Assembly (NCBI GenBank): GCA_951406725.2
Contig: OX597832.1
Location: forward strand, 64,046,001 to 64,110,000
Length of the DNA: 64,000 bases
DNA from: Octopus vulgaris
Lineage: Eukaryota
Direction of reading: 5' to 3'
This document shows positions 20,431 to 52,860 of this stretch, piece after piece. The notes under the pieces are model-generated. The model had not been told where the DNA came from and ran no database searches. It worked only from the letters and a program-made list of their open reading frames with translations. The position numbers and the translations under genes are program-made. Numbering within the stretch: position 1 is the first letter of the stretch; every line of letters starts with the position of its first letter.

Positions 20431-20943
20431 GTTGAAGACGGGAAGGATGACTTCCCTTTGCAAATACTGACAGGACACAGAAAGTGTGTCTATGGCCAGC
20501 TGGAGGAGTGTGTCCTCCTGGGGCTAAAAACTACAGTAGCATCCACCCTTAGGGGTTAGCCATATTGAAATGGCAAAAATACGTCACGATGTGTTACCGC
20601 TACTGTATATAACTCACTTTGATATTTATCATTGTTTGATTTCACTTTTTCAATATCAGCGACAGTGGACGCTGGAAAAAGTATAAGTATTTGTGAAGGA
20701 AATCTAATTCTCGGCGACAACTATGATTGTCACACGCTGACGAGAGGTCAATACCTCGAAACTCGAGTCCGTGTGTATCATAAGTTGAAGACGGGAAGGA
20801 TGAGTTCCCTTTGCAAATACTGACAGGACACAGAAAGTGTGTCTATAGCCAGCTGGAGGAGTGTGTCCTCCTGGGGCTAAAAACTACAGTAGCATCCACC
20901 CTTAGGGGTTAGCCATATTGAAATGGCAAAAATACGTCACGAT
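20431..20943 (+). mobile_element. Retrozyme-like element: 1.45 tandem copies of a 353-bp hammerhead-containing unit in (TA)n
   Basis: 20431-20590 is repeated at 20784-20943 with 2 substitutions; (TA)n on both sides; no coding capacity; canonical HHR inside. Confidence 0.85.
20722..20782 (+). ncRNA. Type I hammerhead ribozyme, canonical core, predicted cleavage after C20769 (GUC)
   Basis: tatgat-tgt-cacacg-CTGACGA-GAGGT-caat-ACCTC-GAAAC-tcga-GTC-cgtgtg-t-atcata: 6-bp helix I plus 6-bp extension, 5-bp helix II, palindromic helix III (ACTCGAGT). Confidence 0.92.
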
Positions 20944-21477
20944 ATATATATATATATATATGTGTGTGTGTGTGTGTGTGTGTGATATACACGTGCGCGC
21001 ACACACACACTACCAGTAGTACCTATTGTTGCTTAAGTTTAGAGATCCTGTCGGAAAAATGCCACACAGGCTATAACATTAATGTGGAAGATGGACATTC
21101 ACAGTGGTGCAAAACGGAGCTCGCCAAGACAAATACGCGCATACATAAACAGTTACGTACATAGACACATACATTACACACATACACACACACATACACG
21201 GATCCATATATAAGTACATAAATTACTAAAATGCTGAAAATCTCTATCTTTGGCCTCGAATGTTGACTAACTGGAAAGTATTGTAGTCTAGTAATACACA
21301 AGGCTGAAAAGAAGCCAAAGGTTAGCCGCTTTGCCAATTTCCCTGGTTGTAAGGTTTATTTTCCTGAAACCCACTGGCTACGGTACTAGCATACGGGAGC
21401 ATGTTTGGCGCACTAGCTAGACACAAGGCACGTTTTGCAGGCTTCGGACATTCTGTCTTCTCTAAGTATTTCAACCT

Positions 21478-21680
21478 GTAACCACGTATGAATCGTTGGC
21501 GATTTTGTTCCTCCGTCTTCCTTTTCTATTGGACTTTCCTCTGTTTCTGAAGAAGAGCTCTGCTCGAAACGTTAAACCATCTTTTTTTCCTTCCCTGGGC
21601 GTCTGCTAATACTTTACATGTACCACATCCACCCGTTGTTATTTTTTTGTTTGTTCTTCATTTTGGGGGGATTTACCTTA
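21478..21680 (+). mobile_element. Penelope-type terminal fragment with a minimal hammerhead (21543-21577)
   Basis: gttt-CTGAAGA-A-GAGC-tct-GCTC-GAAAC-GTT-aaac; homologous to 42612-42819 (-) and 22796-22880 (-). Confidence 0.7.
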
Positions 21681-22895
21681 TATATGTGTGTTATATATAT
21701 ATATATATATATATATATATATATATATATATATATATATATATATATATATATATATATATATATAGGGAGAAATTCACAAAAAAAAAAAAAATACGAA
21801 GACAAATGGAGTAGAAAACAAACAGATGTATTAGTATAACGCTCGGGAACTGAAAAAATCTTTAACGTTTCGAGACTACAGAAAGAAACAGGGAGAGAAT
21901 ATATACATGCATATATATATATATATATATATATATATATATATATATATATATATAATCAAAATAAGCAACAAGGATATCCAAGGTATTAAAGCATTAC
22001 ATCAGTTTTAAAATGTAGAGCAATCTGCAGCCACATATAGAATTTTTAAATTAAATATGACAATGTACATTTTTTATACTTATTCCATTTGCCAACATTG
22101 CAAAGAGGGTAGATATATAGACAGAGAGGTTAATTTCATCATTAAGAACATGATGGTAGAATGTCCTTCCCCATGTGCAGAGTTTTTATCACTGAGTTCA
22201 CTTCGCTATTTAGATTTATTAATGGGGAGGGGATTTTTTTATTTGGTTCAATGAAAACAAACAAGAATTTTCCCTATTTATAGATTGAGGAAGGGGTAGT
22301 ACAAATGTCAAAGCCATAAATCCACCCCCATTACGAGGAATTTAACTTTGGCATATTTGAATGTATTTTAGCTAAAGCTAGTAGGCTGAAGCTAGTCGGG
22401 TAGGGAGAATAGAGACTACTAATGCTCTAGAGATTTCTAATGTCCTTAACTATTTAACAGCCATCATTCTGCTTGCGATTTTAAATAAATATCCTATAGA
22501 TAGTTTTTCCAAAGGATTCAATAAATTTTAGTATCTTATATAGGGATGGAGAATATATAAATCACTTCATATTTATATATATATATATATATATATATAT
22601 ATATATATATATATATCAATTTCTATTAATATAGATTTATAGTTAGTTAGTAAATAGTGATTTATTTTTATTAATGAGTTAAATTAAAGGAATATGCTAG
22701 ACATAATATTTATTACCTGTAATATGTATATATATATATATATATATATATATATATATATATATATATATATATATATATATATATATATATAAAGTTA
22801 ATCCAAACAAGAAAGCACAAAAAAACACAACAACGCGAGGACGTGGAACAAATATAGTATTATTGGACGCTCAGGAAAGGAGTATATATATATAC

Positions 22896-23715
22896 TAACT
22901 GAGTATCCTGGTAATATTCACAATGGAATGCCTTTATTTCAATGCTTTTATTCCATGTTAAATCATGTCGAATTTGATTAGGATGGGTTCCTGGATTATC
23001 TAGGGCAAAAAATAACGCCTCGATTAACGAAGTGTTTCGTTTTCCCACTTGGTGCATAGATGTACAGATTTTCCTTACTTCCTACCCTTGAACAACCAAT
23101 GTAAAGCTGACGATGGGCGAAGCAGAGCTCTTCAAGGTGTAAGCCGACAACCGTAAATGTTTGCCCTTGCGATTTCTTGATAGTCGTGGCAAAACTAAGA
23201 CTCACCTGAAATTGTAGTTGTTTGGATTGGAATGAGACGTCATGTCCTGAGTTTGTGCGTCGGAGATTCTATCAGTCTATGCATGTGTACCTCTTGAGAA
23301 CGCGTGACGGAAGCTCGTGTTCGCAAATCACCAAGTTTATTCCTTTTCCGTTTTGATGTTTTCTGATCTTACTGCTGAAGATTTGTGAGCGTCTTTCGAT
23401 TTATGATGCCCTAATGAAATTGCTTGCTCTCTCTCTCTCTCTCTCTCTCTCTCTCTCTCTCTCTCTCACACACACACACACACACGTATATACACTCAAG
23501 TAATCGCCAGTTTAAGACGGCGGCTTCTAAAGAGAGTCAATGCTGGCGATCTGGAAGCTGAGTTATTTCTCCTAGCAAATATGTTTTTAGATTACTAATA
23601 TCCAGAAATTTTCTCCTTGGGACGCAAATTTCGAAAATTAGATCCGTTTTTCTCTAGACTTTCGGAGCATTTTCGGGACATACACACATACACGCGCGTT
23701 TATAGAATAAATATA
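22896..23715 (-). mobile_element. Non-autonomous Helitron carrying a PIF1-like helicase C-terminal remnant (~22996-23230)
   Basis: QLQFQVSLSFATTIKKSQGQTFTVVGLHLEELCFAHRQLYIGCSRVG matches the RepHel motifs FAMTINKSQGQ and HGQLYVA.SRV; decayed CTAG-like 3' end near 22896; 5' boundary less certain. Confidence 0.75.
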
Positions 23716-50850: not shown

Positions 50851-51850
50851 ACTCTCTCTGCCTCCTCTCACTCTTCCTCCTCTCACTCTTCCTCTCTGTC
50901 TCCTATCTCCTTGTTCTCTCTCCCTCTCTCAGATACACCTTCTCCCCTCTCGTTCTCTTCCTTTCTCTCTCTCACTCACACACACATTCTTTCCTCACTT
51001 GTTCTCTTCCTCTCTTTCTCGCACACACTCTCTCTTCTCTCTTCCTTTTTCACTTTTACACATGCAACCTCTCCCACCACCATATATATATATATATATA
51101 TATATACATCTGTGAGTTATAATTAGTAGGCTATAAAAAAAAAACATTACACTGGTTAAGTGCACTCTTGTGATGAGTATTACTAAAAAGAAGACATGTG
51201 ACGTATTAGTTTCTCAAACGGATTAGTGAAGCTGTTTGTGTTTTCATGACGTTCAACAATTTACTCACCTCTGGCGATTCGTTTGGAAACTGAAACAATA
51301 TAAATCAAATCATATACATACCTCATTTAGCATCTATTTTCTTATACACCTCAATATTACACGGTGTATAAATTATTGTGTACAATCTGTAGCAAGCATG
51401 TGTGTGTGTGTGTGTACGCGCGTTTGTATTTTTATGTGCGTGTATGTATGTTTATGTGCTTGTTTAAGCACTTGCTTGTGAAAACAGTGTGAAAACAGCT
51501 CTTGTACGTGTGTACTTGTACATACATGTGTACATGTAGTTATGTGTGCATGTATGTTTTTGTGAGCTTTACATCAACACGCTCTTTATCTGTGCATGTT
51601 TTTATGTGTGTGCCATTTATATATATAATTATGTGTGTGCGTATGTTTCTCTTCGTGTGCGCGCGCCTCTTAGTGTACGTGTATATTTAGATGCGTTTGT
51701 TCGATATTTTTATATATAGGCATGTGTGTGTGTATGTGTGTGTTTGTGCACGTGAGTGTAAATGTATATTTTTGTATGCATATTTCTGTATGCTTGTATT
51801 TACATATTTCTATATGCTCATGAATTCATGTGTGAGCCTGTTTATAGACT

Positions 51851-52096
51851 TGAAATGAAAGAAATCTCGAACGCCGGAGAATGACCGAGAAAACAGATTA
51901 GAGAACCTAGTAATATATAATTATAGACGGAAATAAAAGTGGCCAGCGGGCCGCCATCGAGATTCGAACTCTGTATCGCAAAAAGAAAAGCGATTCTGTT
52001 CCCTGTACCCGCTTGCTGGCCACATTTCCCCCCCGGTTACATAGGTATTTGACTCGATTTCACAGCTATCCTGCGATCAAGATTTCTTTCATTCCA
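51851..52096. repeat. Old imperfect foldback (MITE-like)
   Basis: tgaaatgaaagaaatctcgaacgccgga pairs with tcctgcgatcaagatttctttcattcca; inner gtggccagc / gctggccac. Confidence 0.6.
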
Positions 52097-52144
52097 TGAA
52101 ATACGAATTCATTCGGGCGCTTCAATGTTTCTTCATTATATAAA

Positions 52145-52860
52145 GGCATGGCTGTGTGGTAAGAAGCTTGCTTCCCAATCACATGCTTATGGGTTCAGTT
52201 CCCCTGCATGGCACCTTGGGCATGTGTCTTCTACTAAAGCCTAGGGCCGACCAAAGCCTTTTGAGTGGATTTGGTCGACAGAAACTGAAAGAAGCCCGTC
52301 GTGTATATATATGTATGTATGTATATATATATATATATATATATATATATATATATATATATATATATATATATATATATATATATATATATATATATAC
52401 AAGTAACATTTGTAGCCACTTTAACATGGCTGTCAGTTCGAGCAGACTATATCGCGATTTTTTTTAACCCCAAGAGAACATCTCCTCTTGCTGGTTAACA
52501 TCCCATAAAACTGCGAGCAGAGGAGAAGATCCCTACCATCTTCTAGCGACATATATATATCATACATATATATATATATATATATATATATATATATATA
52601 TATATATGTATATGTATATATGTGTGTGTGTGTGTGTGTGTATGTGTGTCTGTGTATGTCTTTGTGTCTGTGTTTGTCTTCCCACCATCGCTTGATAACC
52701 AATGTTGGTCTGTTTACGTCCCCGTAACTTAGCGGTTCGGCAAAAGAGCCCGATAAAATAAGCACTAGGCTTACAAAGTCCTGGGATCGATTTCTTCGAC
52801 TAAGAACCTTTAGAGCGGTGCTCTAGCATCGCCGCAGTCAAATGACTGAAACGTAGAGGA
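52145..52860 (+). mobile_element. Family A SINE whose internal (TA)n holds a foreign insert
   Basis: Head ggcatggctgtgtggtaagaagcttgc; the 3' half resumes at about 52620 and ends gccgcagtcaaatgactgaaac. Confidence 0.85.
52400..52550 (-). mobile_element. Fragment of the ~355-nt retrozyme-like family (no HHR retained)
   Basis: Reverse strand taaccagcaagaggagatgttctcttggggttaaaaa...gccatgttaaagtggc aligns with tagccagctggaggagtgtgtcctcctggggctaaaaa...gccatattgaaatggc of the 20.4-kb unit. Confidence 0.7.

Follow-up and report, generated by a model that had tools for sequence, protein, structure and literature searches.

In this work, we describe from the genome of Octopus vulgaris a lineage of non-coding type I hammerhead repeats with a conserved RNA fold outside the ribozyme. 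The lineage belongs to the known non-LTR retrozymes and is not a new element class. Its insertions have two fixed ends, and inverted insertions combine a short and a long one, a combination that is, by analogy with known elements, the 'tail' signature of Penelope-like elements (PLEs). Judging from genomic sequence, these retrozymes are very probably mobilised in trans by PLE machinery via target-primed reverse transcription.

Repeat units and hammerheads in the window

The window, that is, the whole stretch of 64,000 nucleotides that was analysed, holds three members of the lineage: unit A at 20.4 kb, unit B at 28 kb and fragment C at 52 kb. The tandem unit measures 353 nt in A and 362 nt in B, the lengths already given by the initial annotation, and both A and B are very young copies. 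The features are as follows.

20431..20943, plus strand: family A1 insertion (L001), 1.5 units of 353 nt, 5'-truncated at +15, short 3' end (+174), (TA)n on both sides
20474..20636, plus: complete copy of the conserved structured domain in A, from motif positions, folding and covariance model
20533-20540/20599-20606, plus: enclosing helix of the A domain, around the invariant hairpin 20559-20574
20633-20636, plus: positions to which the long 3'-end site (+217 to +220) of A maps
20686..20821, plus: long rod in A, extending hammerhead helix I; sequence before the ribozyme pairs with sequence after the cleavage site
20731..20775, plus: type I hammerhead of A; C3-G8 core, helix II of 5 bp, helix III short and palindromic, cleavage predicted after 20769
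20827..20943, plus: second domain copy in A, ending at the short 3' end
21547: unrelated minimal hammerhead, from the descriptor scan
27863..28333, minus: family B1 inverted arm (L032) of 1.3 units, with its 5' end at +127 and the long 3' site (+235 to +238) at its other end
28127 (core start), minus: second B hammerhead, in the inverted arm; predicted cleavage after 28098
28332..28886, plus: direct arm of the B1 insertion with 1.5 units (362 nt each), 5' end at +345, short 3' site (+175) followed by (TA)35
28408..28587, plus: complete copy of the conserved structured domain in B
28464/28536, plus: enclosing helix in B
28676..28717, plus: type I hammerhead of B; core of the U3-A8 variant, helix III palindromic, cleavage predicted after 28711
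52399..52550, minus: decayed fragment of the older family C, without hammerhead, first hairpin deleted, ending at the short 3' site, (TA)n on both sides

Locus B is an inverted two-armed insertion, made of the minus arm 27863-28333 and the plus arm 28332-28886. The (TA)n flanks that had been described for the loci were found, and every motif named in the initial annotation lies where it had been placed. Counted from the predicted cleavage sites, the first hairpin starts at 20827 in A (+58) and at 28770 in B (+59). The bulged stem occupies 20846-20879, 28790-28822 and, on the minus strand, 52497-52465; the enclosing helix lies at 20533/20599 and 28464/28536, and the hairpin at +143/+148 at 20912, 28859 and 52430 (minus strand). 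The TAGCC reported for the bulged stem of A holds for that copy, its A at 20847 being a minority variant where the first copy and most A1 copies carry G.

The descriptor scan of the window recovered the A and B hammerheads, the second B one on the minus strand and the unrelated one at 21547, and 20 of 20 shuffled sequences were without a match. The Rfam model Hammerhead_1 matches A at 20731-20775 with 32.2 bits (gathering score 34; E 3.3e-6). It did not match the B region because of the U3-A8 core, a variant already described (PMC4209133). An Rfam scan of the whole window gave only TA-repeat miRNA look-alikes among the 150 matches listed out of 390. Core pair 3:8 is C-G or U-A in all 14 aligned copies, including A6, which is broken elsewhere in the core, and 10 of 11 copies outside family C keep a palindromic helix III, which takes six different sequences. 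By core conservation, the A and B hammerheads are predicted self-cleaving ribozymes. Several subfamily cores carry U4C or a U3-G8 mismatch, which counts against the explanation that we favour, and eight of nine Xenopus retrozyme dimers are reported not to have cleaved in vitro (10.64898/2026.07.22.740005). The rod 20686..20821 has a stability of z -3.87, and none of 200 shuffles was equally stable.

The conserved fold and its families

In A, the domain 20474..20636 consists of the first hairpin, the bulged stem, the enclosing helix, the invariant hairpin and a tail hairpin. The three loci had been taken as one family. Their common lineage stands, whereas the families are several: at least six, 44-77% identical over the domain, six being a lower bound since they were found by pattern searches. 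Units A and B do have little overall identity (59%, against 54% in shuffles), but they can be aligned by sequence, with a global alignment score of 37, the best of 100 shuffles reaching -23. The piece at 52 kb belongs to the lineage by sequence match and by its covariance model score of 88 bits, although the hammerhead, present in other C copies, and the first hairpin are missing; by itself it folds no better than shuffles (z -1.37). Copies number in the thousands, with 5,132 motif matches in the genome and none in the control.

The non-ribozyme fold covaries across families, as expected if the fold beyond the ribozyme is under selection, which had been proposed for this DNA. On an alignment that was not fitted to the structure, 87.8% of cells are paired, versus 36-46% when the structure is slid. 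Double-sided changes affect 50 cells, a number matched by none of 500 shuffles; 12 of 31 pairs changed on both sides, which 28 of 500 shuffles reached, and the number of pair types was reached by 435 of 500. These shuffle counts are not probabilities, because the sequences are related. At the first hairpin and the enclosing helix, the MAFFT alignment has B or C out of register. RNAalifold alone gave double-sided change in 7 of 17 pairs. Folded as circles, five units had z values of -5.8 to -8.4 (40 shuffles each). The GC content of complete domains is 0.41-0.46.

Insertion ends, arrays and templates

The ends were counted in 39 distinct insertions from 60 loci, after dropping overlapping loci of one insertion and the segmental duplicate L011. 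The 60 loci scored best among 2,512 and 1,069 candidates, and the counts therefore favour young, long copies. Of 65 outer ends, 64 lie at two fixed sites past the cleavage site: a short one at about +174 and a long one at about +217 (A) or +238 (B). Inverted insertions make up 26 of the 39, and 25 of these combine one short with one long end (binomial p 4e-7 versus an even choice). A (TA)4 occurs within 40 nt of 59 of the 65 ends. The same two-end pattern was read in families C and G, and also in the autonomous PLE family P1, with a 36-nt tail. Such a tail is described as unique to PLEs, marking two start sites of reverse transcription (PMC11167929; 10.1101/2021.04.23.441226). In all families, both fixed 3' ends fall within or just behind the conserved domain, which gives indirect support to the earlier suggestion that the fold serves recognition by a reverse transcriptase (RT).

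The mobilisation that we propose would begin with transcription of a tandem array. Neighbouring hammerheads would pair through the palindromic helix III and release unit-length RNA, which, as deduced from the class, a host ligase would circularise. A PLE protein, probably bound to the conserved multi-helix domain at +55 to +220, would nick (TA)n DNA and begin reverse transcription inside the RNA at about +174 or about +217/+238, if these sites have the meaning given to them in PMC11167929. Each DNA strand would be primable, the short site serving one strand and the long site the other, giving rise to inverted two-armed insertions. The RT would pass the unit junction for up to six units, presumably by rolling-circle copying, and drop off at random, leaving fixed 3' and random 5' ends. 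By analogy, we lean slightly towards circles as the main template.

Arrays reach 6.0 units per arm in A and 5.7 in B, and all 124 countable unit junctions are seamless, a junction being counted only with the first 12 nt of the unit exact. Variants within insertions were fixed in all units 59 times and shared by part of the units six times. Linear templates, either uncut multimers or ribozyme-cut linear RNA, are a serious though less favoured alternative within the same class and with the same helper; the fold would then serve RNA stability or ribozyme control. One variant carried by only some units in two insertions (3 of 4 units in L021, 2 of 4 in L024) fits this alternative, as do three B arms that start at the cleavage site, and both point to linear templates in some events; the anole PLE, moreover, inserts in vitro without need of hammerhead cleavage (PMC11167929). 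Arm starts at +1 to +3 (three of 33 B arms, none of 34 A arms) were counted after the fact, and an enrichment of 5' ends at the cleavage site is not taken as evidence. Against this alternative, all units in arrays of 4-6 (L026, L057, L159) carry fixed diagnostic variants, which requires a monomer stage somewhere, and both fixed ends lie within or just behind the domain in all families. Among contigs of four sequencing runs, one of 392 nt (run X1, one of the four) closes at 362 nt; tandem transcripts would look alike and the RNA status of the run is a guess. At least half of the B words are present in 20 of 24 sequencing-run entries, none on record as RNA.

Penelope-like elements and known retrozymes

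The same genome holds young PLEs that are intact and encode RT, GIY-YIG and the CX4CXXC linker, the latter present in all four PLE ORFs checked. Young Neptune-type elements share the (TA)n target, and the Neptune clade may be a candidate helper. One insertion, L009, is chimeric: a young A1 arm meets, head-to-head, a PLE arm that is likewise young and 5'-truncated, and the 9 nt linking them were templated by the A unit. It is the only such case, and the A arm in it ends at +270, an atypical site. No autonomous PLE carrying the fold was found in 74 PLE-centred loci, with 150 of 6,136 and 47 of 25,038 PLE candidates scored, so that the helper would need to recognise an RNA unlike its own terminal repeat, which speaks against the proposed mobilisation. 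A weak fold match was seen in L234 (32 bits).

The repeats had also been considered as possible ordinary pLTRs of an autonomous Penelope family. Solo pseudo-LTRs of an unsampled family, without an RNA life of their own, would explain why the ends are exactly those of PLE terminal repeats, and the small share of PLE families sampled and the pLTR resemblance reported for Xenopus retrozymes (10.64898/2026.07.22.740005) speak in the same direction. We nevertheless regard this as quite improbable, given that seamless ORF-free arrays reach six units and that the terminal repeats of P1, P2, P4 and P6 are unlike the fold. Further, tblastn of 10 PLE proteins against 182 loci and the window gave no same-strand ORF upstream of any arm, no copy examined sits in a Penelope ORF, and among the loci and PLE families sampled no terminal repeat with the fold adjoins an ORF with RT and GIY-YIG.

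Apparent links between the fold and a PLE ORF were rejected in L133 and L137 (independent insertions that TA and other repeats set apart) and in L109 (opposite strand, beyond the TA-flanked end of the PLE), as were PLE fragments near L057/L058 and L189-L194 (beyond TA tracts) and in L023 and L167 (more than 1 kb off). The tail hairpin resembles a short motif of the P1 and P6 tails, but over too short a stretch to be trusted.

Least credible of all is local growth, in which unequal crossing-over would turn single inserted terminal repeats into minisatellites. This route has been proposed for vertebrate retrozymes (10.64898/2026.07.22.740005), and local amplification was seen at one locus (L206). 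The amplification there took in a short piece along with its TA flank, which the arrays do not copy. The arrays also match dispersed copies at 99-100% identity, their 3' ends are fixed and their 5' ends random, and they are present in both arms of inverted insertions.

The reading as non-LTR retrozymes, already put forward for this DNA, fits what was found. The units form short tandem repeats within 150-450 bp, from dimers to multimers, with GC below 50% and without coding capacity, LTR structure or tRNA head: ATG ORFs of 50 aa were absent from the one A and one B array searched, and tRNA from five loci. Each unit has a type I hammerhead (the window's C piece excepted), and autonomous PLEs reside in the same genome. 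An inverted 5'-truncated arm and a microsatellite target are what PLE-mobilised insertions show, and the octopus insertions have both.

The nearest case among animal non-LTR retrozymes is that of the 350-390 bp repeats of Mytilus (Cervera & de la Pena 2020, PMC7229834). The retrozymes of that paper share with the octopus lineage non-coding tandem units of about 350 bp, a type I hammerhead with short palindromic helix III, GC below 50%, a self-paired predicted fold and PLEs in the same genome. In contrast, a covarying non-ribozyme fold, two fixed 3' ends or an inverted short-and-long pattern are not among the features reported in its main text, and its circles were demonstrated by northern blot, whereas those of the octopus lineage are putative. 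That main text has no mention of octopus or cephalopods. Our literature search found no report on cephalopod retrozymes; Repbase, Dfam and the Zenodo library of PMC13282606 may list them as unclassified SINE or Penelope, and the supplements of PMC7229834 and of bioRxiv preprints may list cephalopod examples.

The likeness to PLEs such as Poseidon of Anolis (PMC11167929) and Neptune/Naiad (10.1101/2021.04.23.441226) extends, as far as these sources describe them, to two RT start sites behind a hammerhead, arms that are inverted and 5'-truncated, a tail at one end only, an AT-rich or (TA)n target and the U3-A8 variant (PMC4209133). Unlike those elements, the octopus units are without ORF and form arrays of a short unit; their tails measure 46-60 nt versus 30-40 in known PLEs, and the 6-bp helix I of their hammerhead sits inside a long rod rather than in a minimal motif.

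Cervera & de la Pena (2020) regarded PLEs as a strong candidate for moving animal retrozymes. A recent preprint on vertebrate retrozymes as PLE derivatives (Li, Clavereau & Pollet 2026, 10.64898/2026.07.22.740005) likewise concludes that PLE machinery mobilises them, with the mechanism still to be worked out. As far as that preprint reports, its link consists of co-occurrence and pLTR homology in Xenopus, with no mollusc sampled, whereas in octopus the link comes from insertion anatomy, with no homologous pLTR found among the PLEs sampled.

More tentatively, the unit may be a minimal circular template for the telomerase-like Penelope RT, with a landing pad unrelated in sequence to the terminal repeat of the helper. 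A protein dimer would prime the two strands at the short and the long site and copy round the circle, and its halves may hold different RNAs, as in L009.

The lineage offers, in one genome, young high-copy elements, mapped putative RT start sites, a mutable covarying fold and intact candidate helpers, which together bring retrozyme mobilisation within reach of the existing in vitro PLE assay. The short-and-long rule bears on how PLEs form inverted structures. If the landing-pad reading is true, no RT-recognition fold of a retrozyme would have been defined before this domain, and the insertions would attest directly, at the genomic level, that PLEs prime both strands and do so asymmetrically.

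Three loci and their families

The genome around the window (2.80 Gb in 227 contigs) is rich in (TA)n. On direct sequence check, the three repeats noted in the initial annotation at 20.4, 28 and 52 kb of the window proved to be as described:

20431-20943: repeat A, an insertion of 1.5 units (unit 353 nt)
27863-28886: repeat B, an inverted, two-armed insertion (unit 362 nt)
52399-52550, minus strand: repeat C, a 150-nt fragment

Directly after locus B, at about 29000-29690 (plus strand) and 29850-30000 (minus strand), we found the 3' end of a Penelope-like element (PLE) that by eye is like the terminal repeat of the PLE family P4 (L253, L256). 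It includes a motif like a hammerhead and a partial copy in inverted orientation.

DNA searches returned 2,512 candidates for A, 1,069 for B and 688 for C. Among the 40 scored for each, full-length A and B matches were mostly 99-100% identical, while the best relatives of C reached only 76-89%, indicating that C is old. A pattern shared by all three loci gave 5,132 matches, against 0 for its reversed control. A second pattern added further families; many of its 19,129 matches overlap or belong to a Helitron-like element carrying a piece of the repeat. The families found are A (subfamilies A1-A7), B (B1-B4), C, E, G and J. Identity among eight representatives is 44-82% (44-77% between compared groups, B1/B4 aside), and all family representatives can be aligned from end to end. 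The high-copy element of ~400 bp (L172, L176, L181, L185, L195, L196, L200), which we take to be Helitron-like from its TC start, 3' hairpin and CTAG end, holds a captured ~60-nt piece of A4 including the invariant hairpin (G000 contig C1). Sequencing runs that carry seven different coded organism labels contained between 0.79 and 0.95 of the unit B words; this family may therefore be common to several species or labels.

Ribozyme and conserved fold

A hammerhead descriptor matched four times in the window and not once in any of 20 shuffles. The A hammerhead scored slightly below the gathering score of Rfam Hammerhead_1; that of B had no Rfam match in a narrow scan, and its core is the U3-A8 variant known from Schistosoma PLEs (PMC4209133). 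Other C copies have a hammerhead upstream. All 14 aligned copies have C-G or U-A as the ribozyme 3:8 pair, and the hammerhead is positioned at the tip of a long predicted rod (folding z -3.87 and -5.52). Helix III is palindromic in 10 of 11 non-C copies, across six different sequences, and longer and non-palindromic in the three C copies; a palindromic helix III makes dimeric hammerheads possible (PMC4209133). Family D (21467-21676, plus strand) is a separate element of ~210 nt whose minimal hammerhead has its core at 21547; it has 4,047 candidates, the best copies being 85-92% identical, and no ORF in the six loci inspected.

The helices first proposed outside the ribozyme were recovered in folds of A and B computed separately, and five units folded as circles gave z values of -5.8 to -8.4. 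Applied to 21 copies aligned with MAFFT, RNAalifold predicted 17 pairs, 7 with double-sided change. In a 31-pair structure, defined from the same sequences on which it was scored, 87.8% of 648 cells are paired (36-46% with slid partners) and 50 cells are altered on both sides, a level reached by none of 500 shuffles. Double-sided change affects 12 of its pairs (reached by 28/500 shuffles), and pair types are not in excess (435/500). As the copies share descent and themselves supplied the structure, this counts as support for covariation in the fold rather than as a formal test. The hairpin at +143/+148 (nt after the predicted cleavage site) is nearly invariant in sequence, which would suit contact with a protein.

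Insertion ends and mode of copying

Across 39 distinct insertions of A and B, two fixed places account for 64 of 65 outer 3' ends, a short end at +171 to +179 and a long end at +216 to +220 (A) or +231 to +238 (B); neither coincides with the cleavage site, and (TA)n adjoins 59 of the 65. The 5' ends are scattered. Paired short and long ends of this kind are the 'tail' of PLEs, a feature peculiar to them that marks two internal start sites of their reverse transcriptase (PMC11167929, 10.1101/2021.04.23.441226). Inverted insertions number 26, and 25 of these combine one short with one long end (binomial p 4e-7 against even choice). The sole inverted insertion with two long ends (L052, G000 C22:33390751-33394113) is also flanked by two sequences that are inverted copies of one another, which points to a fold-back duplication.

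Within 43 insertions, 59 variants are fixed in every covering unit, 87 are confined to a single unit and 6 are shared by some units, and all 124 countable unit junctions are seamless. Both patterns fit a model of copying round a monomeric circle; multimeric linear templates probably occur as well (L021/L024). A host ligase would close the unit RNA and the reverse transcriptase (RT) would copy it by rolling circle, roles borrowed from proposals in PMC7229834. In contrast to the full-unit arrays, a 95-nt 3' fragment repeated seven times in tandem at L206 (520-1470), each time with its own TA flank, is a local amplification. One insertion that is present twice, 6.3 kb apart (L010 and L011, G000 contig C9), is a local segmental duplication.

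Penelope-like elements and described retrozymes

Autonomous PLEs are candidate helpers. GIY-YIG matches were obtained for 148 of 150 scored candidates, 16 of them in 781-aa open frames. The 781-aa ORF of family P1, present in 12/12 fetched loci, carries RT and GIY-YIG domains and the CX4CXXC linker diagnostic of the Neptune/Nematis kind (10.1101/2021.04.23.441226); P1 also targets (TA)n, has a tail of 36 nt and carries a minimal hammerhead of the U3-A8 type. Family P4, found with a distant query, likewise has intact frames. In P1 and P6 (L121-L132, L257) an upstream ORF overlaps the RT ORF in another frame, a two-ORF layout unusual compared with EN+ PLEs as drawn in 10.1101/2021.04.23.441226; that of P1 (479 aa) had no Pfam match.

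None of the PLE terminal repeats inspected resembles the retrozyme fold, and in 74 PLE-centred loci the covariance model R1 of this fold found only separate retrozyme insertions, besides one weak match. No copy in the loci examined adjoins a PLE ORF as its terminal repeat, which upholds the initial reading as a non-LTR retrozyme rather than a Penelope pLTR. A tblastn survey of 182 loci and the window revealed one direct contact, L009, where an A1 arm is joined head-to-head to a 5'-truncated P6 arm whose end, in TA, is the long site of P6 itself. With 39 other copies the P6 arm shares 97-99% identity, which makes both arms young. The A unit templated 9 nt of the join, and there is an overlap of 3 nt. 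As one case, it is only suggestive.

The lineage agrees with the sequence-level definition of non-LTR retrozymes in PMC7229834, where the nearest described molluscan ones are mussel repeats of 350-390 bp. In a 2026 preprint, a PLE origin of retrozymes is argued from vertebrate data (10.64898/2026.07.22.740005). The giant-squid genome paper tabulates 235 hammerhead-1 loci without analysis in its accessible portion (PMC6962438). Thirty-one Penelope-like families are described as recently active in an octopus repeat annotation, whose main text never mentions hammerhead, ribozyme or retrozyme (PMC13282606). PMC10886601, judged by the passages checked, is unrelated. In openly accessible article texts, we found neither a published description of cephalopod retrozymes or of the present fold nor an earlier report of the short-plus-long rule in retrozymes.

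Judged from its sequences, this lineage of retrozymes is real and active. It is of interest because mapped RT start sites, a covarying fold and candidate helpers make the question of retrozyme mobilisation testable.
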